A stretch of DNA of 64,000 nt, from assembly GCF_964194155.1 (NCBI RefSeq), contig NC_135899.1, positions 2,914,001-2,978,000 of the forward strand, given 5' to 3'. A model generated the notes under the pieces. That model made no database searches. It was not told where the DNA came from and saw nothing but the letters and a program-made list of their open reading frames with translations. Shown here piece after piece: positions 4,072 to 62,538 of this stretch. Origin of the DNA: Cetorhinus maximus (Eukaryota). Each line of letters starts with the position of its first letter. Positions within the stretch are counted from its first letter, which is position 1. The translations under genes and the position numbers were made by a program.

Positions 4072-7000
4072 CTGTAACGATTACTCAACATTAAAACATA
4101 TCAAGACAGGCAAACATGAACAAAAAATTAAAATGAGTTGCTTCTCTGCTGTCTGCTTTAACAATACCAATCTGGACATGTTTATATATAATCTAAAAGA
4201 AAGACATTTTTAGACATTTATTCAGCACCTTTCACAACTTTAGTACAAGGCAAACTGCTTTTCAGCCATTAAATACGTTCCTCATTGCACCGTAACTCGC
4301 TAAGGAAACAAAGGTGATATGAAGAGATTTTTCTTTTTGGCAGAGAATGGTTAGGATCTAGAATGCACTGTCTGAGAGTGTGGTGGAGACAGAGTCAATC
4401 GAGTGGTTAGGGTCTGGAATGCATTGCCTGAGAGTGTGGTGGAGACAGGGTCAATCGAGTGGTTAGGATCTGGAATGCACTGTCTGACAGTGTGGTGGAG
4501 ACAGGGTCAATCGAGTGGTTAGGACCTGGAATGCACTGTCTGAGTGTGTGGTGGAGACAGGGTCAATCGAGTGGTTAGGATCTGGAATGCACTGTCTGAG
4601 AGTGTGGTGGAGACAGGGCCAATCGAGTGGTTAGGGTCTGGAATGCACTGCCTGAGAGTGTGGTGGAGACAGGGTCAATCGAGTGGTTAGGATCTGGAAT
4701 GCACTGTCTGAGAGTGTGGTGGAGACAGGGTCAATCGAGTGGTTAGGGTCTGGAATGCACTGTCTGAGAGTGTGGTGGAGACAGGGTCAATCGAGTGGTT
4801 AGGGTCTGGAATGCACTGTCTGAGAGTGTGGTGGAGACAGGGTCAGTTGAGTGGTTAGGATCTGGAATGCACTGTCTGAGAGTGTGGTGGAGACAGGGTC
4901 AATCGAGTGGTTAGGATCTGGAATGCACTGCCTGAGAGTGTGGTGGAGACAGGGTCAATCGAGTGGTTAGGGTCTGGAATGCACTGTCTGAGAGTGTGGT
5001 GGAGACAGGGTCAATCGAGTGGTTAGGGTCTGGAATGCACTGTCTGAGAGTGTGGTGGAGACAGGGTCAGTTGAGTGGTTAGGATCTGGAATGCACTGTC
5101 TGAGAGTGTGGTGGAGACAGGGTCAGTTGAGTGGTTAGGATCTGGAATGCACTGTCTGAGAGTGTGGTGGAGACAGGGTCAATCGAGTGGTTAGGATCTG
5201 GAATGCACTGCCTGAGAGTGTGGTGGAGACAGGGTCAATCGAGTGGTTAGGGTCTGGAATGCACTGTCTGAGAGTGTGGTGGAGACAGGGTCAATTAGGA
5301 CTCTGAAAAGAAAACTGGATCATCATCCGAAGAGAAAAATTTTGTAGGGCCATGGAGAAAAGGCAGCGGGGTGGATGTAGGTGAACTGCTCTTGCAGAAG
5401 ATTGGCACAGACATGACAGGCCAAATAGCCTCCCTCTGTGCTGTAAATATTCTATGATTCTGTGAAGTGTAGTCACTAACATGCACACTGCTCGCTCCAA
5501 CAACAGCAATGGAATAATCACCAGACTTTATGATGTTGATTGAAAGAGAAATGTTACCAAAAGCATAATTGAGAACTACCCTGTTCTTCCAAATAGTGCC
5601 CTGGATTGTTTTGTATCCCCTCCTTCCCAGCCCAAAAGGCCAGACCGTGTCACGTTCAATGTCTCATCTGAAAGACAACGCATCCAACATTGCAGCGCTC
5701 CCCCAGAACGGCACTGGCACTGCCAGCCTAGCTTGTGCTCACGGCTCTGCAGCAGAACTTGAACCCACAGCTTTGTGACGCACAGGCAGGAGTGCTACCC
5801 ACTGAGCCACAGCTGAAGGGAAACTGCTCTTGTTAGAGTGCAAGCCCCAGCCAGTCTCCATTACTCTTAACTCACCCCCCCCCACCCCCCCCGCAAACAG
5901 CAGATTATCCAAACTGGGGGCAAGACAAACAAATTCAAAGCCCAGCCTCACTAGCCTTGCACTGGGTCAGGAAGCGGCCATTCAGCCCCTCGAGTCTGTT
6001 TTGCCAATCAATTGGATCATGGCTGACCTGTATCTTAACTGTGTCTAATTTTAAGGCCATGCACCCAGCCCTTGTTCTGGAGTGGCCCTGCCAGAGGAAA
6101 CATCGTACCTACCCCATTTAACCCTTTAATTATCTTAAACATGTCAGTCCCTTTACAGCAGAGGCCACAGGGCAGGAACACTCACACAGATTTTCATTCT
6201 GTTAATTTCAAGAGAATTAAAATCAAGAAGGTTTTATAAAGGACAGGTGACCTGCTTCCCCAACACTGCACTCCCCGCCCCAGCCCCAGGGCTAGATGAC
6301 TGCCCCAGACGATAAAGATGAAATCTACCCCATTGAGTCACCTGGGTCTAAGATCTTGAACATATTCTTCCAAGTCCAGTACTGCAGTGGACCCAGATAG
6401 TTCTCTGGCTTCACCTTCACAGATATGTTCTCCAAGGGAGGCACACAAACCTTCACTCTACAGTTTTAAAAAAAAGGTGAAAGAAAAGAAAGTTAGAACC
6501 ATTTCTTTACTGGCAGTATAGTACTGGTGGCCGAAAACTTCACTGGCCCAGTAGAAAGTAAGTAGGCTAAACCAATACACCCATTGGAGATGCAACTGTT
6601 TACTAGGATGTGACTCGGGATGGAAGACGAGTTATAAGAAGAGGTTGGAAAAGCTCCGACTGTCCTCCTTGGGACAGAGGCGGCCAAGGAAGTGACCAAA
6701 TGGAGGATTTCAAGATGTTGAGAGATTTTCATCGACTAGATAAAGAAACACTATTTCCCCCTGACAAGTGGGTCCATAACCAGAGGCTCTAGATTTAATA
6801 TAATTGGCAAAAGGTCTAGAGAGATAGGTGAGGAGAAATGTTTTTGTATTATAAGTCACTGCACCTCAAAAGTAATGCAATGACTGCAAAACACTTTGTG
6901 ACAGCCCTGAAGTTTCGAAAGGCACTTTATAAATGTAAATTTTTTCCTTCTAAATCATTTATTTGTCCTCATCACTTCTATTTGGAAAGAACGAGTGTTG

Positions 7001-22179: not shown

Positions 22180-24716
22180 ATAAAAACAAAAAGCTACTGC
22201 GGATGCCGGAAATCCAAAACAAAAACAGAATTACCTGGAAAAACTCAGCAGGTCTGGCAGCATCGGTGGAGAAGAAAAGAGTCGACGTTTCGAGTCCACA
22301 TGACCCTTCAACAGAACTGAAGTATAGTTAGGAGATAATCAAAAGATGTCACAGACAAAAGGATCAAAGAGGTGTTGAAGGTGGTGATATTATCTAAGAA
22401 AAGTGCTAATTAAGAAGATGGCAGGACACTCAAGGTACAGCTCTACTGTGGGTGGGGTGGAAAGACTGACAAGGTATTAGTTGTAGATTTAAAAATAATG
22501 GAAATAGGTGGGAAAAGAAAAATCTATATAAATTATTGAAAGACCATGACCCCACCACGGAACATCAAGCCATTGTTTCCAGGACTGTCACTGACCTCAT
22601 CTCCTCTGGAGATCTTCCTCCCACAGCTTCCAACCTGATAGTCGCCCAACCTCAGACGGCCCTCTTCTACCTCCTACCCAAAATCCACAAACAGAACTGT
22701 CCTGGCAGACCGATCGTGTCAGCCTGTTCCTGCCCCACGGAACTCATTTCTCGTTATGACTCCCTTCTCTCTCCCCTTGTCCAGTCCTTCCCACCTACAT
22801 CCGTGATTCCTCTGACGCCTTACGTCACATCAACAATTTCCAGTTCCCTGGCCCCAACCGCTTCCTCTTCACCATGGATGTCCAATCCCTCTACACCATC
22901 CCCCACCAGGATGGTCTGAGGGCCCTTAGCTTCTTCCTTGAACAGAGGCCCGAACAATCCCCATCCACCACTACTCTCCTCCGTCTGGCTGAACTTGTTC
23001 TCACACTGAACAATTTCTCCTTTAACTCCTCTCACTTCCTCCAAATAAAAGGTGTTGCTATGGGTACCCGCATGGGCCCCAGCTATGCCTGTCTTTTTAT
23101 GGGGTATGTGGAACATTCCTTGTTCCAGTCCTACTCTGGCCCCCTCCCAAAACTCTTTCTCCGGTACATCGATAATTACTTCGGTGCTGCTTCATGCTCT
23201 CATCGGGACCTGGAAAAATTTATTAATTTTGCTTCCAATCTCCACCCCTCTATCATTTTCATATATTCCATCTCTGACACTTCTCTTCCCTTCATTGACC
23301 TCTCTGTCTCAATTTCTGATGATAGACAGTCCACCAATATCCATTACAAGCCTACCGACTCCCACAGCTACCTCGACTACAGCTCCTCACACCCCGCTTC
23401 CTGTAAGGACTCCATCCCATTCTCTCAGTTCCTTCGCCTCTGTCGCATCTGTTCCGATGACGCTACCTTCAAAACCAGTTCCTCTGACATGTCCTCCTTC
23501 TTCCTTAACCGAGGTTTTCCACCCATGGTCGTTGACAGGGCCCTCAACCGTGTCCGGCCCATATCCCGCGCATCCGCCCTCATGTCTTCTCCTCCCTCCC
23601 AGAAACATGATAGGGTCCCCCTTGTCCTCACTTATCACCCCACCAGCCTCCGCATTCAAAGGATCATCCTCCGCCATTTCCGCCAACTCCAGCATGATGC
23701 CACCACCAAACACATCTTCCCTTCACCCCCCCTGGCGGCATTCCGTAGGGATTGTTCCCTCCGGGACACCCTGGTCCACTCCTCCATCACCCCCTACTCC
23801 TCAACCCCCACCTATGGCACCTCCCCATGCCCACACAGAAAATGCAACACCTGCTCCTTCACTTCCTCTCTCCTCACCGTCCAAGGGCCCAAACACTCCT
23901 TTCAAGTGAAGCAGCATTTCACTTGCATTTCCCCTAACTTAGTCTACTGCATTCGTTGCTCCCAATGCGGTCTCCTCTACATTGGAGAGACCAAACGCAA
24001 ACTGGGCGACCGCTTTGCAGAACACCTGCGGTCTGTCCGCAAGAAAGACCTAAACCTCCCTGTCGCTTGCCATTTTAACACTCCACCCTGCTCTCTTGCC
24101 CACATGTCTGTCCTTGGCTTGCTGCATTGTTCCAGTGAAGCCCGACACAAACTGGAGGAACAGCACCTCATCTTCCGACTAGGCACTTTACAGCCTTCCG
24201 GGCTGAATATTGAATTCAACAACTTTAGATCTTAAACTCCCCCTCCCCCCATCCCCACCCCCTTTCCGTTTCTTCCCCCTCCCCCTTTTTTTTTCTTTCA
24301 ATAATTTATATAGATTTTTCTTTTCCCACCTATTTCCATTATTTTTAAATCTATAACTAATACCTTGTCGGGCTTTCCACCCCACCCCCACTAGAGCTGT
24401 ACCTTGAGTGTCCTGCCATCCATTCTTAATTAGCACTTTTCTTAGATAATATCACCACCTTCAACACCTCTTTGATCCTTTTGTCTGTGACATCTTTTGA
24501 TTAACTGCTCCTATCACTGCTCGCTTGTCCCTACAACCACCCCACCCACAACTTCTCTCCCCCCGTCCCCCCACCTTAAACCAGCTTATATTTCACCCCT
24601 CTCCTAACTATACTTCAGTTCTGTTGAAGGGTCATGTGGACTCGAAACGTCGACTCTTTTCTTCTCCACCGATGCTGCCAGACCTGCTGAGTTTTTCCAG
24701 GTAATTCTGTTTTTAT
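22180..24716 (+). mobile_element. Penelope-like retroelement 1 (Neptune-type RT + GIY-YIG), 5'-truncated, inverted terminal copy, defective
   Basis: ORF 22874-24235 has GVAMGTRMGPSYA, YIDN (catalytic D lost), a Cys-rich linker and NLVYCIRC..CGLLYIGET (GIY-YIG). 16-bp TSD tttgtgtttcactgag at 22164-22179 and 24717-24732. 22180-22542 is an inverted copy of the 3' end. Confidence 0.92.
24616..24656 (+). ncRNA. Hammerhead-like motif in Penelope element 1 pLTR (variant core CUGUUGA); inverted copy at 22279-22319
   Basis: cagtt-CTGTTGA-a-gggtc atgtg gactc-GAAAC-GTC-gact. Confidence 0.65.
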
Positions 24717-25359
24717 TTTGTGTTTCACTGAGTTGAGCTTCTTTGATGAGCGGGTCGGTGAAGGTAATGTGGGCTTCATGGACTTCCAAAGTGGAGATGA
24801 GGGTAATGTGGTATAATGAGCCTTTCTCTGCCCCTCACTCTTAACTCCACTTAACAGGACCTTTTCCAAGTTTCTGTCCCTCCTTTGACTAGAAGGTCTC
24901 ATTGGAACTTTCTCCTGTTCCACTCCCCTGGATTTGGGGACTTTTTTCTTTCGCTTGGGGAGATGGTAATGTCAGTGGACAAGTGATGCAAAGGCCCAGG
25001 CTACTGCTCCAGGCATACGGGTTCAAATCCAGCCATCAATAAAGTCTGCAATATAAAAGCTAGTATTTCATGATTGTTTTTAAAAACCCATCTGGTTCAC
25101 TAATCTCCTTCAGGGAAGGAAACCTGGTTCACTAATTTCCTTCAGGGAAGGAAATCTGCCATCCTTACCTGATCTGGCCTGCATGTGACTCCAGACCCAC
25201 AGCAATGTGGTTGATGCTTACCTGCCCTCTGAAATGACCTAGCACTCAGTTCAAGGTCAATTAGGGATGGGCAACAAATGCTGCCAGTGATGCCCACATC
25301 CCATGAAAGAAAAAAGGGGGGAAAAAGGCATTTGTTAATAAAGTCAAAGCTGGTAAAGT

Positions 25360-30785: not shown

Positions 30786-33653
30786 AAACAAAAAGCTAAA
30801 AGCTACTGCGGATGCTGGAAATCCAAAACAAAAACAGAATTACCTGGAAAAACTCAGCAGGTCTGGCAGCATCGGTGGAGAAGAAATCAGTTAACGTTTC
30901 AAGTCTTCATGACGCTTCGGCAGAACTGAGTATAGTTAGGAGAAAGGTGAAATATAAGCTGGTCTAAGGTGGGGGGCGGGGGGAGAGGGAAGTTGAGGGT
31001 GGGATGATTGTGGAGATAAGCAAGCAGTGATAGAAGCAGATAATCATAAGATGTCACAGACAAAAGGATCAAAGAGGTGTTGAAGGTGGTGATATTATCT
31101 AAGAAAAGTGCTAATTAAGAATGGAAGGCAGGATACTCAAGGTACAGCTCTAGTGGGGGTGGGGTGGAAAGACTAACAAAGTTTTAGTTTTAGATTTTAA
31201 AATAATGGAAATAGGTGGGAAAAGAAAAATCTATATAAATTATTGAAAGAAAAAGGGAGGGGGGAGAAAGGGGGTGGGGATGGGGGGAGGGGGAGTTTAA
31301 GATCTAAAGTTGTTGAATTCAATATTCAGCCCGGAAGGCTGTCAAGTGCCTAGTCGGAAGATGAGGTGCTGTTCCTCCAGTTTGCGTTGGGCTTCACTGG
31401 AACAATGCAGCAAGCCAAGGACAGACATGTGGGCAAGAGAACAGGGTGGAGTGTTAAAATGGCAAGCGACAGGGAGGTTTGGGTCTTTCTTGCGGACAGA
31501 CCGCAGGTGTTCTGCAAAACGGTCGCCCAGTTTGCGTTTGGTCTCTCCAATGTAGAGGAGACCGCATTGGGAGCAACGAATGCAGTAGACTAAGTTAGGG
31601 GAAATGCAAGTGAAATGCTGCTTCACTTGAAAGGAGTGTTTGGGCCCTTGGACGGTGAGGAGAGAGGAAGTGAAGGGGCAGGTGTTGCATCTTCTGTGTG
31701 GGCATGGGGAGGTGCCATAGGTGGGGGTTGAGGAGTAGGGGGTGATGGAGGAGTGGACCAGGGTGTCCCCGAGGGAACGATCCCTACGGAATGCCGCCAG
31801 GGGGGGTGAAGGGAAGATGTGTTTGGTGGTGGCATCATGCTGGAGTTGGAGGAAATGGTGGAGGATGATCCTTTGAATGCGGAGGCTGGTGGGGTGATAA
31901 GTGAGGACAAGGGGGACCCTATCATGTTTCTGGGAAGGAGGAGAAGGCGTGAGGGCGGATGGGCGGGTTATGGGCCGGACACGGTTGAGAGCCCTGTCAA
32001 CGACCGTGGGTGGAAAACCTCGGTTAAGGAAGAAGGAGGACATGTCAGAGGAGCTGTTTTTGAAGGTAGCATCATCAGAACAGATGCGACAGAGGCGAAG
32101 GAACTGAGAGAATGGGATGGAGTCCTTACAGGAAGCGGGGTGTGAGGAGCTGTAGTCGAGGTAGCTGTGGGAATTGGTAGGCTTGTAATGGATATTCGTG
32201 GACAGTCTATCATCAGAAATTGAGACAGAGAGGTCAAGGAAGGGAAGAGAAGTGTCAGAGATGGACCATGTGAAAATGATGGAGGGGTGGAGATTGGAAG
32301 CAAAATTAATAAATTTTTCCACGTCCCGACGAGAGCATGAAGCAGCACCGAAGTAATCATCGATGTACCGGAGAAAGAGTTGTGGGAGGGGGCCGGAGTA
32401 GGACTGGAACAAGGAATGTTCCACATACCCCATGAAGAGACAGGCATAGCTGGGGCCCATGCGGGTACCCATAACCACACCTTTTATTTGGAGGAAGTGA
32501 GAGGAGTTAAAGGAGAAATTGTTCAGTGTGAGAACAAGTTCAGCCAGACGGAGGAGAGTAGTGGTGGATGGGGATTGTTCGGGCCTCTGCTCAAGGAAGA
32601 AGCTAAGGGCCCTTAGACCATCCTGGTGGGGGATGGAGGTGTAGAGGGATTGGACATCCATGGTGAAGAGGAAGCGGTTGGGGCCAGGGAACTGGAAATT
32701 GTTGATGTGACGTAAGGTGTCAGAGGAATCACGGATGTAGGTGGGAAGGGACTGGACAAGGGGAGAGAGAAGGGAGTCAAGATAACGAGAAATGAGTTCC
32801 GTGGGGCAGGAACAGGCTGACACGATCGGTCTGCCAGGACAGTTCTGTTTGTGGATTTTGGGTAGGAGGTAGAAGCGGGCCGTCTGAGGTTGGGCAACTA
32901 TCAAGTTGGAAGCTGTGGGAGGAAGATCTCCAGAGGAGATGAGGTCAGTGACAGTCCTGGAAACAATGGCTTGATGTTCTGTGGTGGGGTCATGGTCCAG
33001 GGAGAGGTAGGAGGAAGTGTCTGCGAGTTGACGCTCAGCCTCCGCGAGGTAGAGGTCAATGCGCCAGACAACAACAGTACCACCCTTGTCAGCGGGTTTG
33101 ATGACAATGTTGGGTTGGACCTGAGAGAACGGAGTGCAGTGAGTTCAGAGAGAGACAGATTAGAATGGGTGAGAGGAGCAGAGAAATTGAGATGGCTAAT
33201 GTCACGCCGACAGTTCTCAATGAAAAGATCAAGAGAAGGTAAGAATCCAGAGGGAGGGGTCCAGGTGGAGGGAGAATATTGGAGGTGGGTAAAAGGATCC
33301 GTTGAACGGGGAGAGGTCTCCTGCCCAAAGAAGTGAGCACGGAGACAAAGACGGCGGGAGAAGAGTTCAGCATCATGCCGAGCCCAAAATTCATTGAGAT
33401 GAGGGCGTAGGGTATGAAGCTAAGTCCTTTGCTGAGCACTGAACGTTCAGCATCGGAGAGGGGAAGGTCAGGGGGTATAGTGAATACGCGGCTGGGGCTG
33501 GGATTGGAAGATGGGGTGGGGACGGAGGGACAAGCAGGGGTGGAGGGTCCCGAGTTCTGCCGAAGGGTCATGAAGACTCGAAATGTTAACTGATTTCTTC
33601 TCCACCGATGCTGCCAGACCTGCTGAGTTTTTCCAGGTAATTCTGTTTTTGTT
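30786..33653 (-). mobile_element. Penelope-like retroelement 2 (same family), inserted into CR1 ORF2
   Basis: ORF 31342-32904 has YIDD and GIY-YIG, with a premature TGA ~15 codons before the end seen in element 1. 14-bp TSD atggtacaatttaa at 30772-30785 and 33654-33667. Short inverted 3' copy at 33552-33653. Confidence 0.93.
30888..30928 (-). ncRNA. Hammerhead-like motif in Penelope element 2 (variant core CUGCCGA); second copy at 33552-33592 (+)
   Basis: cagtt-CTGCCGA-a-gcgtc atgaa gactt-GAAAC-GTT-aactg. Confidence 0.6.
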
Positions 33654-37649: not shown

Positions 37650-37950
37650 AGCTGATCAGAATCTATTCCTCTTCCCCCTCATCCTTTCCCTAATTCGCCC
37701 CCAAACACTCCCGGGTCCCTGGGGAAATTTCTCCCGCTTTCCAGCGGTTTCTCCCCCGGACTCGATACTTCCAGAAGATTCTCCAAATCACGGTGTCTCG
37801 CGGGCCCGCCGCGCTCTCATTGGCCGCAGCTTCAGAACCTTCTCCAACATTCGGCGATGAGGTCACCGGACCGCGCGCTGATTGGCCCTGGCAGTCATCA
37901 ATCAGCCTCTGTATCGCCCACTCGGCCGCGCTGAGACGAAATAAAGGACA
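37650..37950 (+). promoter_or_regulatory. HSP70 copy 1 promoter: heat-shock elements, CCAAT boxes, degenerate TATA
   Basis: TTCcaGAAgaTTC at 37769-37781; GAAccTTCtccaacaTTC at ~37835-37852; ATTGG at ~37819 and ~37881; GAAATAAAG at ~37938 where the other copies have TATATAAA. Confidence 0.85.
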
Positions 37951-38230
37951 AGAGCTGTAAACCAGGGAGTTACAATTAATCGCCTGAGAGAAGGAATCAG
38001 TTGGAAGCTGGATTACTGCAAACGGAAGACTCGACAGCGGCCGCAGCAGCAGCGAAGAGCGACACTATTGTAATTGACTTTTATCAAGACAGAAGAGCAG
38101 TGAGCCAGGGAGTTATAATTGCCTTTTGGAATACACCAGTTGGCAGCTGGATTACAAAGCGGAAGACTTGGCAACAGTAGTAGCAACAGCAGCAGCGACT
38201 GAACTTCATTGACTTTTATCAAGACAGAAG

Positions 38231-40159
38231 ATGCCTGCAGCTAAGGGAACAGCCATTGGCATTGACCTGGGCACCACCTACTCCTGTGTGGGGGTCTTCC
38301 AACATGGCAAGGTGGAGATCATCGCCAATGACCAGGGCAACCGCACCACCCCCAGCTATGTGGCCTTCAACGACACCGAGAGGCTCATTGGAGATGCAGC
38401 CAAGAACCAGGTGGCCCTGAACCCTCCCAACACCGTCTTTGATGCCAAGAGGCTCATCGGGAGGAAGTTTGATGACCCGGTGGTCCAGTCTGATATGAAG
38501 CACTGGCCCTTCCAGGTGGTGAATGATGCAGGAAAGCCCAAGGTGAGGGTCGAGTACAAGGGTGAGGATAAAAAGTTCTACCCTGAGGAAATCTCTTCCA
38601 TGGTGCTGACCAAGATGAAGGAGACGGCTGAGGCTTACCTGGGACACACCGTCACCAATGCTGTTATCACGGTGCCGGCTTACTTCAATGACTCCCAACG
38701 GCAGGCAACCAAAGATGCCGGTGTGATCGCTGGTCTCAATGTCCTCCGTGTCATCAATGAGCCAACAGCAGCTGCCATTGCCTATGGCCTAGACAAGAAG
38801 GGCAGAGGAGATCATAATGTTCTCATCTTTGACTTGGGAGGGGGCACCTTTGACGTGTCTGTTCTCTCCATTGACGACGGTATCTTTGAAGTGAAATCGA
38901 CAGCGGGTGACACCCACTTGGGAGGAGAGGACTTTGATAATCGCATGGTCAATCACTTCATTGAGGAGTTCAAGCGTAAATACAAGAAGGACATCAGTCA
39001 AAACAAGAGGGCGGTCAGGAGACTGAGGACAGCCTGTGAAAGAGCAAAGAGAACCCTATCTTCCAGCACCCAAGCCAGTATTGAAATTGACTCTCTGTTT
39101 GAAGGCATAGACTTTTACACCTCCATCACCAGGGCTCGGTTTGAGGAGCTAAATTCTGACCTGTTCAGAGGCACTCTTGAACCAGTGGAGAAAGCTCTGA
39201 GAGACGCCAAGCTGGACAAATCGCAGATCCATGATGTTGTCTTGGTCGGGGGCTCCACTCGCATCCCCAAGATCCAGAAACTGCTGCAAGATTTCTTCAA
39301 TGGCAAGGAGCTGAACAAGAGCATCAATCCTGATGAAGCTGTGGCCTATGGAGCGGCTGTTCAAGCGGCTGTTCTGATGGGGGATAAGTCGGAGAATGTT
39401 CAGGATTTACTTCTCCTGGATGTCGCTGCCCTGTCTCTGGGTCTGGAGACAGCAGGAGGGGTGATGACTGCACTCATCAAGCGTAACACCACCATTCCCA
39501 CCAAGCAGACTCAGATCTTCAGCACCTACTCTGATAACCAGCCTGGTGTCCTTATTCAGGTGTATGAAGGAGAGAGAGCCATGACCAAGGACAACAATCT
39601 GCTGGGCAAATTTGAGTTGAGTGGTATCGCTCCTGCCCCTCGTGGGGTGCCACAGATCCAGGTCACCTTCGATATTGATGCCAACGGCATCCTTAATGTT
39701 TCTGCTGTTGACAAGAGCACAGGCAAAACAAACAAGATCACCATCAGCAATGACAAGGGAAGGCTGAGTAAGGAGGAAATTGAGAGGATGGTGCAGGATG
39801 CAGAAAAGTACAAAACTGAGGATGAAGTCCAGCGGCAGAGGATCGCAGCCAAGAACTCCCTGGAGTCCTACGCCTTCAACATGAAGAACGCAGTGGAGGA
39901 TGAGAACGTGAAAAATAAGATCAGTGAGGCAGATAAGAGGAAAATCATTAACCAGTGTAACCAGGCAATATTGTGGTTGGAGAACAATCAGATGGCAGAG
40001 AAGGAGGAGTTTGAGTACCAGCTGAGTGAGCTGGAAAAACTCTGTAAACCCATCATTGCCAACCTGTACCAAGGAGGAGCAACTGCAGGTGGAGGATCTT
40101 GCAGAGCCCAGGCTGGAAATGCCACATCCTCAGGTCCGACTGTGGAGGAGATGGATTAA
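38231..40159 (+). CDS. hsp70: Heat shock protein 70, intronless inducible type, copy 1 (C-terminus GPTVEEMD)
   Basis: 642-aa ORF with the signatures [22 protein letters not shown] and [15 protein letters not shown]; HSE promoter. Confidence 0.98.
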
Positions 40160-44368: not shown

Positions 44369-45512
44369 AACATACCATTAGTCTTCCTAATTGCTTGCTG
44401 CACCTTCATGTTAGCTTTGAGTGACTAATTGAAGAGGGCACCAAAGTCCCTTTCTATCTCTAGACTTTCCGATCTCTTACCATTGAGGAAATACTCTGCA
44501 CATCTATTCCTTCTACCAAAGTGGATAACCTCACATTTTTCCTCATTATATTCCATCTTCCATGTTCTTGCCCACTCACTAAGTCTGTCAAAATCCTCTT
44601 GGAACCACTTTACATCTTCCTCACAACACATTCCCATCTAGCTTCGTGTCATCCCCAAACTCGGAAATATTACATTTCCCCACATCCAAATCATTGATAT
44701 ATATTGTGAACAGCTGGGGTCCAAGCACTAATGCTTGCAGTACCCCACTAGTCACAGCCTGCCAACGCGAGAATGATCCATTTATTCCTACTCTCTGTTT
44801 TCTGCCTGTTAGCCAATCCTTAATTCATGCCAGTATATTACCTCCTAGCCCATGTGCTTTAATTTTGCTAACCAACCACCTATCATGGACTTTATCAAAA
44901 GTCTTATGAAAATCCAAATACACTATGTCCACAGACTCTCCTTTATCAATTCTATTAGTACCACCCTCAAAGAACTCAAACAGGTTCATCAAACATGATT
45001 TCCCATTCACAGATCCATGTTGAAGATACTCAATCAAGTTATTATCATCCAAGCATCCACTGATCACATCCTTAATAATTGATTCTCACATTTGCCCTAC
45101 CACTGATGCAATGCTAACAGGTTTGTAGTGGAGTGACATTTGCTACCTTCCAATCAACAGGAACTGTTCCAGAATCTATAGAATTTTGGAAGATGATCAC
45201 CAATGCATCCACTAATCCCATAGCTGCCACTTTCAACATCTGGGATGTAGAATATCAGGTCCCAGGGACTTATCAACCTTCAGTCCCATTAATTTCTCCA
45301 ATAAAACCTTCTTACTAATACTGATTTCCTTCAATTCCTCATTCTCCCTCATCCCCTGGATCTCAAATTCTGAGAGATTTCTTGCATCTTCAGTGAAAAC
45401 AGACACAGATTAATCATTTACCTTCTCTGCCATTTCTCTATTCCTCATTATAAATTCTCCTGGCTCTGCCTGTGGTGGACCCACATTTGTCTTAGCCAAA
45501 CATTTCCTCATA

Positions 45513-46692
45513 CCTTCCTCTCCCTCCCAGAACCATGATAGGGCCCCCCTTGTCCTCACTTATCACCCCACCGGCCTCCACATTTAAAGGATTATCCTCC
45601 ATCATTTCCGCCAACTCCAGCATGATGCCACCACCAAATACATCTTCCCTTCACCCCCCTGGCGGCATTCGCAGGGATCGTTCCCTCCGGGACACCCTGG
45701 TCCACTCCTCCATCACCCCCTACACCTCAACCCTCTCCCATGGCACCTTCCCATGCAACCGCAGAAGGTGCAACACCTGCCCCTTTACTTCCCCTCTCCT
45801 CACCATCCAAGGGCCCAAACACTTCTTTCAAGCGAAGCAGCATTTCACTTGCACGTCACTCAATTTAGTCTACTGCATTCGCTGCTCCCAATGCAGTTTC
45901 CTCTACATTGGAGAGACCAAACGCAGACTGGGTGACCACTTTGCGGAACACCTTCGGTCTGTTTGCAAGCAAGACCCAGGCCTCCCTGTCGCTTGCCATT
46001 TCAACACACCACCCTGCTCTCATGCACACATGTCCATCCTTGGCCTGCTGCAATGTTCCAGTGAAGCTCAACACAAACTGGAGGAACAGCACCTCATCTT
46101 CCGACTAGGCACTTTACAGCCTTCCGGACTGAATATTGAGTTCAACAACTTTAAATCATGAACTCTCTCCTCCATCCCCACCCACTTTCCGATCCCCCTT
46201 TTTTCCAATAATTTATATAGATTTTTCTTTTCGTACCTATTTCCATTATTTTTAAATGTATTTCCATCCATTGTTTTATCTCTACCTTTTAGCCTATTTC
46301 GATCCCTTCCCCCCGCCCCACCCCCACTAGGACTATCTGTCCCTTGCTCATCCTGCTTTCTACCCTTAATGTCACCTATTAGCACATTTTTTAGCTAATA
46401 TCACCACCATCAACACCTCTTTGTCCTTTTGTCTCCGACATCTTTTGGCTATCTCCACCTATCACTGGCCCTCTATCCAACTCTACCTGTCCCACCCCCC
46501 CACCCCCCCACCTCCCCCTTAAACCAGCTTATATTTCACCTCTCTTCTATTTTTCCTTAGTTCTGTTGAAGAGTCATATAGACTCGAAACGTTAACTGTG
46601 TTCCTCTCCACTGATGCTGTCAGACCTGCTGAGTTTTTCCAGGTATTTTTATTTTTGTTTTGGATTTCCAGCATCTGCACTTTTTTGCTTTT
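45513..46692 (+). mobile_element. Penelope-like retroelement 3, 5'-truncated (GIY-YIG + 3' pLTR)
   Basis: ORF 45535-46161 is homologous to the C-terminus of elements 1 and 2; same 3' UTR and hammerhead motif. Confidence 0.88.
46558..46598 (+). ncRNA. Hammerhead-like motif in Penelope element 3 (core CUGUUGA)
   Basis: agtt-CTGTTGA-a-gagtc atata gactc-GAAAC-GTT-aact; perfect 5-bp stem II. Confidence 0.65.
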
Positions 46693-47404
46693 ATTTCCTT
46701 TGTACATATCTATAGAAGCTTTTACAGTCCATTTTTATGTTTTTTGCTCATTTACATTCTTATTCTATTCTCCCATTCTTCATCAGTTTCTTGGTCCTCC
46801 TTTGCTGTATTCTAAAATGCTCCCAATCCTCAGGTTTACTATTCCTTCTGGCATTTTATAGGCCTTTTCTTTTAATCTTATACAATCCTTAACTTCCTTT
46901 GTTAGCCACGGTTGACTGACTTTTCTTCTTGGCTTATGTGCCTTGAAGGAATGTATAGTTTCTGTAAACAATATAATTCTTTAAAAACTATCCATTGCCT
47001 ATGTACTGTCATAACTTTTAATGTATTTTCGCAATCCATCTCCACCAATTTGCCCCTTGCACCTTCATAATCTCCTTTGTTCAAATTTAACACCTTGGCT
47101 TCAGATTGACCTACTTCACTTTCAAACATAATGTAAAATTCTACCATATTACAGTCACTGAGACCTAAAGGTTCTTTTACAAGATTACTAATTAGCCCTT
47201 TCTCATTACATTATATTAGATCTATAATATCCTGTTCTCTGGTCAGTTCCACAACATACTAATCTAGAGATCATCTCTAACACGCTCCAGAAACTCTTCG
47301 TCCACAACATTGAGTTCTTATTAGGTTTACCCAGCCTATATGCAGATTGAAGTCACCCTTGATTACTGTATTACCCATGCTACATGCATCATTAATCTTG
47401 AGTA

Positions 47405-52374: not shown

Positions 52375-52675
52375 AACTGATCAGAATCTATTCCTCTTCC
52401 CCCTTTCCGTTCCCTAATTCCCCCCGAAACACTCCCGGGTCCCTTCAGAAATTTCTCCCGCTTTCCAGCGGTTTCTTCGCCGGTCTCGATCCTTCCAGAA
52501 GATTCGCCAACTCTCGGCATCTGGTGGGCCCGTCGCGCTCTCAATGGCCGCCGCTTCAGAACCTTCTACAACATTCGGCGGTGAGGTCACCAGAACGCGC
52601 GCTGAATGGTCAAGGGCGCCGTCAATCAGACGCTGGGTGACGCCCACTCGGCCGCTCTCAGACTATATAAACGAC
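52375..52675 (+). promoter_or_regulatory. HSP70 copy 2 promoter: HSEs and TATA box
   Basis: TTCcaGAAgaTTC at 52493-52505; proximal HSE at ~52555-52576; TATATAAA at 52664-52671. Confidence 0.88.
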
Positions 52676-52801: not shown

Positions 52802-54730
52802 ATGCCTGCAGCTAAGGGAACAGCCATTGGCATTGACCTAGGCACCACATACTCCTGTGTGGGGGTCTTCCAACATGGCAAGGTGGAGATCATCGCCAAT
52901 GACCAGGGCAACCGCACCACCCCCAGCTATGTGGCCTTCAGCGACACCGAGAGGCTTCTTGGAGATGCAGCCAAGAACCAGGTGGCCCTGAACCCACCCA
53001 ACACCGTCTTTGATGCCAAGAGGCTCATCGGGAGGAAGTTTGATGACCCGGTGGTCCAGTCTGATATGAAGCACTGGCCCTTCCAAGTGGTCAGTGATGC
53101 AGGAAAGCCCAAAGTGAAGGTCGAGTACAAGGGTGAGGATAAAACGTTTTACCCTGAGGAAATCTCTTCCATGGTGCTGACCAAGATGAAGGAGACGGCT
53201 GAAGCTTACCTGGGACACACCGTCACCAATGCTGTTATCACGGTGCCGGCTTACTTCAATGACTCCCAGCGGCAGGCAACCAAAGATGCCGGTGTGATCG
53301 CTGGTCTCAATGTCCTCCGTGTCATCAATGAGCCAACAGCAGCTGCCATTGCCTACGGCCTAGACAAGAAGGGTAGAGGAGATCACAATGTTCTCATCTT
53401 TGACTTGGGAGGTGGAACCTTTGACGTGTCTGTTCTCTCCATTGATGACGGTATCTTTGAAGTGAAATCGACAGCGGGTGACACCCACTTGGGAGGAGAG
53501 GACTTTGATAATCGCATGGTCAATCACTTCATTGAGGAGTTCAAGCGTAAATACAAGAAGGACATCAGTCAAAACAAGAGGGCGGTCAGGAGACTGAGGA
53601 CAGCCTGCGAGAGAGCAAAGAGAACCCTATCTTCCAGCACCCAAGCCAGTATTGAGATTGACTCTCTGTTTGAAGGCATAGACTTTTACACCTCCATCAC
53701 CAGGGCTCGGTTTGAGGAGCTAAATTCTGACCTGTTCAGAGGCACTCTGGAACCAGTGGAGAAAGCTCTGAGAGATGCCAAGCTGGACAAATCGCAGATC
53801 CATGATGTTGTCTTGGTTGGGGGCTCCACCCGCATCCCCAAGATCCAGAAACTGCTGCAAGATTTCTTCAATGGCAAGGAGCTGAACAAGAGCATCAATC
53901 CTGATGAAGCTGTGGCCTATGGAGCGGCTGTTCAAGCGGCTGTTCTGATGGGGGATAAGTCGGAGAATGTTCAGGATTTACTTCTCCTGGATGTCGCTGC
54001 CCTGTCTCTGGGTCTGGAGACAGCAGGAGGGGTGATGACTGCACTCATCAAGCGTAACACCACCATTCCCACCAAGCAGACTCAGATCTTCAGCACCTAC
54101 TCTGATAACCAGCCTGGTGTCCTTATTCAGGTGTATGAAGGAGAGAGAGCCATGACCAAGGACAACAATCTGCTGGGCAAATTTGAGTTGAGTGGCATTG
54201 CTCCTGCCCCTCGTGGGGTGCCACAGATCGAGGTCACCTTCGATATTGATGCCAACGGCATCCTCAATGTTTCTGCTGTTGACAAGAGCACAGGCAAAAC
54301 AAACAAAATCACCATCAGCAATGACAAGGGAAGGCTGAGTAAGGAGGAAATTGAAAGGATGGTGCAGGATGCAGAAAAGTACAAAACTGAGGATGAAGTC
54401 CAGCGGCAGAGGATCGCAGCCAAGAACTCCCTGGAGTCCTACGCCTTCAACATGAAGAGCGCAGTGGAGGATGAGAATGTGAAAAATAAGATCAGTGAGG
54501 CAGATAAGAAGAAAATCATTGACCAGTGTAACCAGGCAATATTGTGGTTGGAGAACAATCAGATGGCAGAGAAGGAAGAATTTGAGTACCAGCTGAGTGA
54601 GCTGGAAAAACTCTGTAAACCCATCATTGCCAACCTGTACCAAGGAGGGGCAGCTGCAGCTGGAGGATCTTGCAGAGACCAGGCTGGAAATAGCACAACC
54701 ACAGGACCGACTGTGGAGGAAGTGGATTAA
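52802..54730 (+). CDS. hsp70: Heat shock protein 70, intronless inducible type, copy 2 (canonical C-terminus GPTVEEVD)
   Basis: 642-aa ORF, all three HSP70 signatures, HSE + TATA promoter. Confidence 0.98.
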
Positions 54731-55084
54731 AACACGGGAAAGAATAAGGATACACATTGGGAATCTGACAGAGATTGTTGGACTCTTCCTCATTGAGCAC
54801 GAAGATTTATTTTGTATTTCTGACTGACAGTGGAGGACTTTACTGGACTAGATGCTGCCAGGTCTATACTGACTGTAATAGAAGGTGTGATGACAGTGCT
54901 GCTCTGTAAACTCTCTTCAGCCTGTGGCTTAACTTGCTGAATTAATCTGCTGAATCCTATTGAGGACGATCAGTGTAGTTGGCATCTAGTTATACTTGTT
55001 TTCTATGGAACTGTCCTTAATGTACAGGTTAAACTTTTTATTTATACTTGTTCACAGCTGGACACAGCTGCATTTTTGTAATCA

Positions 55085-59819: not shown

Positions 59820-60120
59820 ACTGATCAGAATCTATTCCTCTTCCCCCTTTCCGTTCCCTAATTCCCCCCGAAACACTCCCGGGTCTCTGCGGAAATTTCT
59901 CCCGCTTTCCAGCGGTTTCTTCGCCGGTCTCGATCCTTCCAGAAGATTCGCCAACTCTCGGCGTCTCGCGGACCCGCCGCGCTCTCATTGGCCGCCGCTT
60001 CAGAACCTTCTCCAACATTCGGCGGTGAGGTCACCACACCGCGCGCTGAATCGTCAAGGTCGCCGTCAATCAGACGCTGGGTGACGCCCACTCGGCCGCT
60101 CTCAGACTATATAAAAGGAC
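59820..60120 (+). promoter_or_regulatory. HSP70 copy 3 promoter: HSEs, CCAAT and TATA box
   Basis: TTCcaGAAgaTTC at 59937-59949; proximal HSE at ~59999-60020; TATATAAAA at 60108-60116. Confidence 0.88.
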
Positions 60121-60246
60121 AAGAACTGGAAACCAGAGTTATCATCGCCTGAGAGAAGAAAACATTTGGAAGCTGCATTACTATCAGTGGAAGATTTGAC
60201 ACCAGCATCGAAGAGTGAATTGAATTAACTTTTATCAAGACAGAAG

Positions 60247-62175
60247 ATGCCTGCAGCTAAGGGAACAGCCATTGGCATTGACCTGGGCACCACATACTCC
60301 TGTGTGGGGGTCTTCCAACATGGCAAGGTGGAGATCATCGCCAATGACCAGGGCAACCGCACCACCCCCAGCTATGTGGCCTTCAACGACACCGAGAGGC
60401 TTCTTGGAGATGCAGCCAAGAACCAGGTGGCCCTGAACCCACCCAACACCGTCTTTGATGCCAAGAGGCTCATCGGGAGGAAGTTTGATGACCCGGTGGT
60501 CCAGTCTGATATGAAGCACTGGCCCTTCCAAGTGGTCAGTGATGCAGGAAAGCCCAAAGTGAAGGTTGAGTACAAGGGTGAGGATAAAACGTTCTACCCT
60601 GAGGAAATCTCTTCCATGGTGCTGACCAAGATGAAGGAGACGGCTGAAGCTTACCTGGGACACACCGTCACCAATGCTGTTATCACGGTGCCGGCTTACT
60701 TCAATGACTCCCAGCGGCAGGCAACCAAAGATGCCGGTGTGATCGCTGGTCTCAATGTCCTCCGTGTCATCAATGAGCCAACAGCAGCTGCCATTGCCTA
60801 CGGCCTAGACAAGAAGGGTAGAGGAGATCACAATGTTCTCATCTTTGACTTGGGAGGTGGAACCTTTGACGTGTCTGTTCTCTCCATTGACGACGGTATC
60901 TTTGAAGTGAAATCGACAGCAGGTGACACCCACTTGGGAGGAGAGGACTTTGATAATCGCATGGTCAATCACTTCATTGAGGAGTTCAAGCGTAAATACA
61001 AGAAGGACATCAGTCAAAACAAGAGGGCGGTCAGGAGACTGAGGACAGCCTGCGAGAGAGCAAAGAGAACCCTATCTTCCAGCACCCAAGCCAGTATTGA
61101 GATTGACTCTCTGTTTGAAGGCATAGACTTTTACACCTCCATCACCAGGGCTCGGTTTGAGGAGCTAAATTCTGACCTGTTCAGAGGCACTCTGGAACCA
61201 GTGGAGAAAGCTCTGAGAGACGCCAAGCTGGACAAATCGCAGATCCATGATGTTGTCTTGGTCGGGGGCTCCACCCGCATCCCCAAGATCCAGAAACTGC
61301 TGCAAGATTTCTTCAATGGCAAGGAGCTGAACAAGAGCATCAATCCTGATGAAGCTGTGGCCTATGGAGCGGCTGTTCAAGCGGCTGTTCTGATGGGGGA
61401 TAAGTCGGAGAATGTTCAGGATTTACTTCTCCTGGATGTCGCTGCCCTGTCTCTGGGTCTGGAGACAGCCGGAGGGGTGATGACTGCACTCATCAAGCGT
61501 AACACCACCATTCCCACCAAGCAGACTCAGATCTTCAGCACCTACTCTGATAACCAGCCTGGTGTCCTTATTCAGGTGTATGAAGGAGAGAGGGCCATGA
61601 CCAAGGACAACAATCTGCTGGGGAAATTTGAATTGAGTGGCATTCCTCCTGCCCCTCGTGGGGTGCCACAGATCGAGGTCACCTTCGATATTGATGCCAA
61701 CGGCATCCTCAATGTTTCTGCTGTTGACAAGAGCACAGGCAAAACAAACAAAATCACTATCAGCAATGACAAGGGAAGGCTGAGTAAGGAGGAAATTGAA
61801 AGGATGGTGCAGGATGCAGAAAAGTACAAAACTGAGGATGAAGTCCACCGGCAGAGGATCACATCCAAGAACTCCCTGGAGTCCTACGCCTTCAACATGA
61901 AGAGCACAGTGGAGGATGAGAACATGAGAAATAAGATCAGTGAGGTAGATAAGAAGAAAATCATTGACCGGTGTAACCAGGCAATATTGTGGTTGGAGAA
62001 CAATCAGATGGCAGAGAAGGAAGAATTTGAGTACCAGCTGAGTGAGCTGGAAAAACTCTGTAAACCCATCATTGCCAACCTGTACCAAGGAGGGGCAGCT
62101 GCAGCTGGAGGATCTTGCAGAGACCAGGCTGGAAATGCCACAACCACAGGACCGACTGGGGAGGAAGAGGATTAA
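60247..62175 (+). CDS. hsp70: Heat shock protein 70, intronless inducible type, copy 3 (divergent C-terminus GPTGEEED)
   Basis: 642-aa intact ORF, all three HSP70 signatures, HSE + TATA promoter. Confidence 0.97.
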
Positions 62176-62532
62176 AACACTGGAAAGAATAAGGATGCAC
62201 ATTGGGAATCTAACACAGATTGTTGGACTCTTCCTCATTGAGCACGAAGATTTATTTCGTATTTCTGACTGACAGTGGAGGACTTTACTGGACTAGATGC
62301 TGCCAGGTCTACACTGACTGTAATAGAAGGTGTGATGACAGTGCTGCTCTGTAAACTCTCTTCAGCCTGTGGTTTAACTGATTGTTTTGATAAATTAATT
62401 TGCTGAATCCTATTGAGGACGATCAGTGTAGTTGGCATCTAGTTATACTTGTTTTCTATGGAACTGTCCTTAATGTACAGGTTAAACTTTTTATTTATAC
62501 TTGTTCACAGCTGGACTGAATTTTTGTAATCA

Positions 62533-62538
62533 AATAAA
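62533..62538 (+). terminator. Polyadenylation signal, HSP70 copy 3
   Basis: AATAAA at the homologous position with a downstream GT-rich element. Confidence 0.7.

Follow-up and report, generated by a model that had tools for sequence, protein, structure and literature searches.

Do neighbouring and nearly identical HSP70 genes differ in the motif through which co-chaperones dock, and if so, does selection keep them different? The question is raised by a 64,000-nucleotide stretch of the genome of the basking shark, Cetorhinus maximus (hereafter the window), in which three tandem HSP70 genes end in VEEMD, VEEVD, and GEEED. The original prediction was that the array may be heat-inducible and its tails may confer different co-chaperone wiring, with the third copy uncoupled from HSP90 hand-off or CHIP degradation.

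The array and its tails

All three genes lie on the + strand, and each is an intact 642-amino acid open reading frame. Copy 1 (38231..40159, intronless) ends in VEEMD due to V641M, copy 2 (52802..54730) in VEEVD, the ancestral shark form, and copy 3 (60247..62175) in GEEED. Upon re-reading the frames and codons, we found the three tails to be exactly as originally described. The tail codons are GTG GAG GAG ATG GAT in copy 1 (40142..40156), GTG GAG GAA GTG GAT followed by TAA in copy 2 (54713..54727), and GGG GAG GAA GAG GAT followed by TAA in copy 3 (62158..62172). Compared with copy 2, copy 3 has GTG>GGG at 62159 and GTG>GAG at 62168. The accompanying observation, that both valine codons of the tail are changed in copy 3 while the ATPase domains are almost identical, was also confirmed, as codons 1-386 of copies 2 and 3 differ by a single amino acid and differ from copy 1 by 4-5.

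The description of a three-copy array was right for the window, but it missed half of the locus. A genome search gave 18 matches, and the window together with 40 kb on either side contains a cluster of six intronless, single-frame HSP70 genes in 91 kb, of which the window holds three. Copy 4 (G000:C22:2981680-2983608; recorded as XP_078422592.1, Cetorhinus maximus) is located 3.7 kb past the window end and ends GPTVEEED, with the same Val-to-Glu change as copy 3. Two minus-strand genes, 15-22 kb before the window, both end TIEEVD; these are older, and copies 1-4 are the four youngest and near-identical members. There are five tail types across the array. V638G is private to copy 3 and V641E is common to copies 3 and 4. 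The canonical C-terminal (I/V)EEVD is absent from copies 1, 3, and 4 and present in copy 2 and both upstream genes.

Apart from their tails, copies 1, 2, and 3 match PF00012 over its full length (positions 1-599 of 599) with 869-871 bits, and nine HSP70 signature motifs are present in copies 1-4. Judged by sequence, the array genes are ordinary members of inducible cytosolic HSP70 clusters. A further HSP70 locus outside the array ends IEEVD. L008 (G000:C19:2916773-2917195), which is located on another contig, has an HSP70 frame of at least 579 amino acids that ends TIEEVD, and its lid is 51% identical.

Several other features were noted in the window. Open reading frames of 271 amino acids on the minus strand lie antisense to copies 2 and 3 (53978-54793 and 61423-62238), with the same opposite copy 4; as two database matches carry antisense-read HSP70 extensions, these frames are probably a by-product of HSP70 codon usage. 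Two inverted 2.2-kb copies of a repeat (22542-24726 and 30818-32997), ~6 kb apart and 95% identical, each contain a frame of 439-453 amino acids with a weak terminal GIY-YIG match (22.4 bits; cut-off 22.6) and presumably represent a Penelope-type retroelement. An older copy of this repeat is found at ~45500-46700, between HSP70 copies 1 and 2. Tandem repeats with a period of ~56 bases, and units that are 94-97% identical, occupy 4345-5296.

The ancestral tail and sequence exchange between copies

Relatives came from the 120 best of 517 matches, as cluster representatives together with their members, and the counts that follow describe these proteins rather than whole gene sets. Among these best 120 of 517 matches, (I/V)EEVD terminates 30 of 33 proteins from other sharks, all 27 proteins from rays, and 84 of 88 proteins from other animals. 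The shark exceptions, found in one species each, are VEEVN (Rhincodon), VEVVD (Stegostoma), and VEEMD (Chiloscyllium plagiosum). The remaining four have ragged or extended ends (TIEET, PQRKA, KHLRM, and ILCIY) and were excluded from one Fisher test. VEEVD terminates all four of the white shark (Carcharodon) proteins retrieved, and the two organism B contigs likewise have Val in both tail positions (VEEVD). In the alignment, Val occupies P2 in 23/23 non-lamniform sharks and in 85/86 more distant proteins. Glu or Gly tail variants were absent from the 33 other-shark proteins and from the organism B contigs, and a search for short or partial relatives, which yielded two proteins from 23 candidates, produced no further lamniform tails. 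UniRef lists P0023, a ray-type HSP70 with an IEEVD terminus, under DnaK of Kangiella spongicola, a bacterial label that likely reflects contamination.

In a tree of 44 proteins, which leaves out two shark proteins under 600 amino acids, the copies cluster species by species. All four from the basking shark fall together (support 91/79, unstarred) and adjoin the four Carcharodon copies, and copies 3 and 4 are sisters (89/78, unstarred). Taken with the tree, the tail survey of relatives indicates that VEEVD is ancestral in this shark clade and that the three tail changes are recent and lineage-specific. The orthologue comparison spoke against a division of labour between the tails, since the variants are not retained in Carcharodon (VEEVD in 4/4) or in either organism B contig, and those of other sharks are different ones. 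Altered tails account for 3/6 proteins here and 3/33 in other sharks (Fisher P = 0.036), and for 3/4 versus 3/32 within the VEEVD clade (P = 0.010), both being post hoc comparisons of copies that are not independent. Point changes in the motif number 6/36 in the multi-copy shark clade versus 0/111 elsewhere (P = 0.0002; also post hoc). Each of them is private, as expected if redundant copies tolerate change, and not if a single alternative were conserved.

The copies have not evolved independently. A tract of 1,894 bases (59967..61860, + strand) that covers the promoter, the ATPase domain, and the substrate-binding beta domain up to codon 538 is letter-identical in copies 3 and 4, and is best explained by recent conversion or unequal crossover. 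There are no differences between these two copies in codons 1-533, but 2.8-4.8% in the lid, tail, 3′ UTR, and following kilobase. Near-identity over kilobases is also seen between the spacers that follow copies 2 and 3. In its final 17 codons, copy 3 shares the state of copy 2 at positions 626 and 633 and that of copy 4 at 641. The identical tract, the mosaic of informative sites, and the grouping of copies by species are those of concerted evolution, with copy 3 apparently a mosaic produced by conversion or unequal crossover. By the same routes, V641E would have arisen once and spread between copies 3 and 4. This bears on the contrast between a conserved ATPase domain and a changed tail, which had been offered as a sign of selection. 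As silent sites and the promoter are just as identical to copy 4, the conservation of the ATPase domain is no evidence for selection on copy 3; it stems from the recent exchange of sequence.

Docking, selection, and decay

HOP docks via the EEVD tail of HSP70, which is the basis of the HOP part of the original prediction. For the other readers of the tail, passages from human peptide and protein scans report that CHIP needs P1, P2, and P5, with Ile, Leu, and Val the only residues tolerated at P5, and is bound more weakly when P2 or P5 is Ala, while DnaJB4 needs P5, P3, and P4, but not P2 (PMC8913300). According to the same passages, the I637A variant of Hsp72 retains its ATPase activity, yet luciferase refolding nearly fails with DnaJB4 and is normal with DnaJA2 (PMC8913300). 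CHIP degrades HSP70 itself, as stated in part of PMC3734832. The basking shark genome has at least one CHIP/STUB1 locus, the number being a lower bound, with ordinary-looking TPR exons.

If the human data apply, a VEEVD tail would bind both CHIP and class B J-proteins, and VEEMD would be mildly affected at most, an uncertain call given that Pro at P2 is tolerated elsewhere. VEEED would be expected to bind class B J-proteins but no longer CHIP, although the passages on P2 deal with residues other than Glu and Met. GEEED would lose the docking of both, so that copy 3 would keep ATP-driven folding with class A J-proteins and would escape CHIP-driven turnover after stress. Because CHIP degrades HSP70 itself, copies 3 and 4 would be longer-lived. 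The predicted uncoupling of copy 3 is supported with regard to CHIP, whose docking is likely lost by GEEED according to published human scans (PMC8913300).

Whether such wiring is maintained is a separate matter, and here the lid of copy 3 is instructive. The segment at 61861..61970 (+ strand) contains seven private differences, all of which change an amino acid (A539T, A540S, A554T, V560M, K561R, A567V, and Q575R); with the tail included, codons 539-638 carry eight private differences, eight changing and none silent. A region in which copy 3 has only amino acid-changing differences counts against different co-chaperone wiring as a maintained division. At two lid positions copy 3 has the residue seen in Carcharodon (T539 and R561), and these may be retentions rather than new changes. 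Copies 1 and 2 differ by 16 changing and 34 silent codons, and the contrast with copy 3 gave a Fisher P of 0.0004 (0.07 for the lid only and 0.06 for lid and tail only); like all of our selection tests, it is post hoc and based on small counts. Measured against neutrality, the excess of changing differences in copy 3 (8 to 0) has a P of 0.08-0.16.

Two other explanations were considered and rejected. Gene-wide relaxation was ruled out, as the 4-7 changes that each copy has at conserved columns are no more than other sharks show (2-11). A divergent donor for the lid was likewise rejected, as the upstream genes and other HSP70 loci are only 69-76% identical to the copy 3 lid (6 of 14 loci matched).

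The eight private amino acid changes, with none silent, fit a copy that has lost purifying selection, and we infer that such selection is relaxed on the lid and tail of copy 3. The three motif changes are unexceptional at the local 3′-end rate of 0.083 events per base (P = 0.09), although not at a uniform gene-wide rate (P = 0.001). Redundancy is available in that three of the six array genes keep (I/V)EEVD. Three of the four young copies would keep altered tails since the canonical copies cover docking, and the altered tails likely persist because that function is supplied. The best reading, and one that we hold to be reasonably probable, is therefore decay permitted by redundancy in a concertedly evolving array rather than designed wiring. 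Certain observations count against drift. V641E is retained in two copies, all three changes fall on two Val codons, and the motif has changed more than the conserved lid columns (2/5 codons versus 3/46; P = 0.07), which could reflect selection on the motif. The seven lid differences in 111 bases are also dense compared with a flank rate of 1.0% (P = 0.0002) or 2.4% (P = 0.02), and drift alone explains this cluster only if the tract is older.

The hits on Val codons, the two copies with V641E, and the 8-to-0 private differences of copy 3 also support adaptive sub-functionalisation, according to which selection keeps a graded set of tails, such that some inducible HSP70s are blind to CHIP, long-lived, and biased towards folding, while others stay coupled. 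The series VEEVD, VEEMD, VEEED, and GEEED matches the positions that separate CHIP binding from DnaJB4 binding, the promoters are intact, copy 3 is present even in the small sequencing run X2, and VEEMD recurs in Chiloscyllium. In mammalian cells, moreover, HSP70 is stabilised and survival of heat improves when CHIP is blocked, as described in part of PMC3734832. However, the Glu and Gly variants are those unseen in the 33 other-shark proteins and organism B, and neither the excess of changing over silent differences nor the number of motif changes at the local rate is significant. Copies 3 and 4, whose promoters differ by 0.7% over 700 bases, are unlikely to be regulated apart, and any stable division of labour would be worn down as the copies keep exchanging sequence. 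We therefore regard sub-functionalisation as improbable, though better placed than the other alternatives. Only slightly less favoured is a stricter version, in which the tails form a separation-of-function series, with VEEED folding with class B J-proteins while invisible to CHIP, GEEED cut off from all EEVD readers, and a long-lived, non-degrading pool of stress chaperone selected in the face of gene conversion.

It is also conceivable, but rather unlikely, that the tails differ in sequence and hardly in function, with the terminal Asp and carboxylate, the extra acidic charge in a basic clamp, and lid contacts maintaining binding. The Asp at P1 and both Glu residues are indeed unchanged in all copies. 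Other ligands of CHIP can have Pro at P2, at least in the passages of a preprint concerned with them (bioRxiv 10.1101/2023.07.17.549407), so the Met of copy 1 may be harmless; and, from a portion of PMC3877065 in which the Val groove of the Toc64 clamp is modelled, the CHIP-type P5 pocket is absent in Hop. Against this stand the weakening of CHIP binding by Ala at P2 or P5, the restriction of P5 to Ile, Leu, or Val, and the near-abolition of DnaJB4-dependent refolding by a P5 change, all from the scans cited above, as well as the near-invariance of Val at P2 among non-lamniform sharks and more distant proteins.

Expression signals, read support, and known systems

A perfect three-unit heat-shock element precedes each of copies 1-4. 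The three cores in the window, on the + strand upstream of copy 1 (37769..37781), copy 2 (52493..52505), and copy 3 (59937..59949), are the only perfect ones in the 64 kb, and shuffling the copy 3 promoter produced a perfect element in 11 of 1000 trials. A TATA box is found in copies 2-4 (in copy 3 at 60108..60116, + strand) and is altered in copy 1, whose 5′ leader (~37930-38230) has ~150 extra bases that repeat the leader's own end. All copies have an AATAAA polyadenylation signal ~355-362 bases past the stop codon, that of copy 3 being at 62533..62538 (+ strand). The heat-shock promoter on each copy agrees with the predicted heat-inducibility; the maintained division of labour attached to that prediction did not find support.

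Run X2 contains an exact 140-base contig of copy 3 (62107-62246) that spans the tail and 3′ UTR. Its contig set is 9.7 Mb at a depth of 10-30, and since a 4-Gb genome cannot give such depth in ~10 Mb of contigs, X2 is probably an RNA run; this assignment is our own deduction, and contigs give no expression level. Among its 6 records, the run also has a contig of copy 2 and a UTR fragment of copy 4 type but nothing from copy 1, which would imply that copies 2, 3, and 4 are transcribed. If copy 3 were a silent or untranslated young pseudogene, its tail would be without consequence. Its last 104 codons do carry only amino acid-changing private differences, and three of these are G>A changes next to C, the pattern of CpG decay. 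Nevertheless, the frame is open, the heat-shock element, TATA box, and poly(A) signal are intact, and a contig from a probable RNA run matches it exactly; that copy 3 is already dead is hence doubtful, more so than preserved docking.

To check the tail bases themselves, contigs from four of the 24 listed sequencing runs (X1, X2, X5, and X8) were compared in the region 62085-62420 of the window. Run X1 has four separate tail contigs at depths of 17.5 (copy 1), 12.8 (copy 2), 17 (copy 3), and 15 (copy 4), while a stretch common to three copies has a depth of 43.4, or ~3x that of a single tail. The copy 3 contig shows 0 differences over 62107-62189. The X1 and X2 contigs thus confirmed the variant letters, and no error in which the tail should read EEVD was seen. 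Runs X1 and X2 are from one sample, possibly the assembly's own, and the support for the tails derives from one individual; X5, from another sample of the same species, contains only a copy 1-type 3′ UTR piece, with the tail outside its coverage. In X8, which is from organism B and was compared over 62095-62416, a copy 2-4-type contig has a depth of 370 and a copy 1-type contig a depth of 32, a hint of ~ten copies of the unit in that organism, bearing in mind that contig depth is not copy number.

The weakest explanation is that the tails are artefactual, through wrong bases or through two haplotypes placed in tandem and read as copies 3 and 4; it is suggested by the long near-identical tracts between neighbouring units and the possibility that X1 is the assembly's own sample, but is very improbable given the exact match to the copy 3 tail in two runs, the four tail contigs with a shared stretch at threefold depth, and the pairwise differences of 3-5% that copies 2, 3, and 4 show in their 3′ portions. 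The similar depths of the four tails make it unlikely that copies 3 and 4 are alleles, and contig matches together with depth largely refute assembly error and allelic duplication.

In its organization, the basking shark array resembles mammalian HSPA1A/HSPA1B and the shark and ray arrays of the same clade, which are likewise tandem, intronless, driven by heat-shock elements, and homogenised within species by gene conversion, according to parts of PMC5865164; the likeness drawn here is one of cluster type. In the mammalian pair, conversion and purifying selection keep the proteins near-identical (PMC5865164, in the same parts). In the basking shark, unlike mammals, three of the four young copies are altered in EEVD, and the lid of copy 3 has only amino acid-changing private differences.

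Yeast Ssb and HSP110 lack EEVD. A non-canonical tail is also found on a cytosolic-type HSP70 in Leishmania, where HSPA2 ends EDVD and, in the portion of PMC4943205 that deals with it, is proposed to have altered co-chaperone contacts, as here. These three are old, conserved subfamilies, whereas the shark copies are young, >96% identical to a canonical neighbour, and bear variants unseen in the closest relative examined. The nearest counterparts are the engineered tail mutants of Hsp72 (I637A, the alanine scan, and the P5 scan; Johnson et al. 2022, PMC8913300), which, as far as the relevant sections go, address the same positions, P5 and P2, and predict that P2 changes separate CHIP from DnaJB4 binding. 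In contrast to the engineered mutants, the shark tails are natural vertebrate variants (Gly at P5, and Glu or Met at P2), known here from sequence. A literature search, with subscription journals largely outside its coverage, found no prior description of them.

The likely setting is the usual birth and death of gene copies, here within a single species. Few motifs of cytosolic HSP70 are as fixed as EEVD, and the effects of losing it have been studied with engineered mutants. A vertebrate with intact, probably transcribed, variant-tail copies under heat-shock elements, beside a near-identical canonical copy, offers a built-in control. Even if the tails are the product of drift, they would indicate that inducible copies can do without the motif when they are redundant, and would provide a natural allelic series for the question of whether a client is folded or degraded. 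If selection maintains them, they would represent tuning of chaperone triage at the level of paralogues in a vertebrate.
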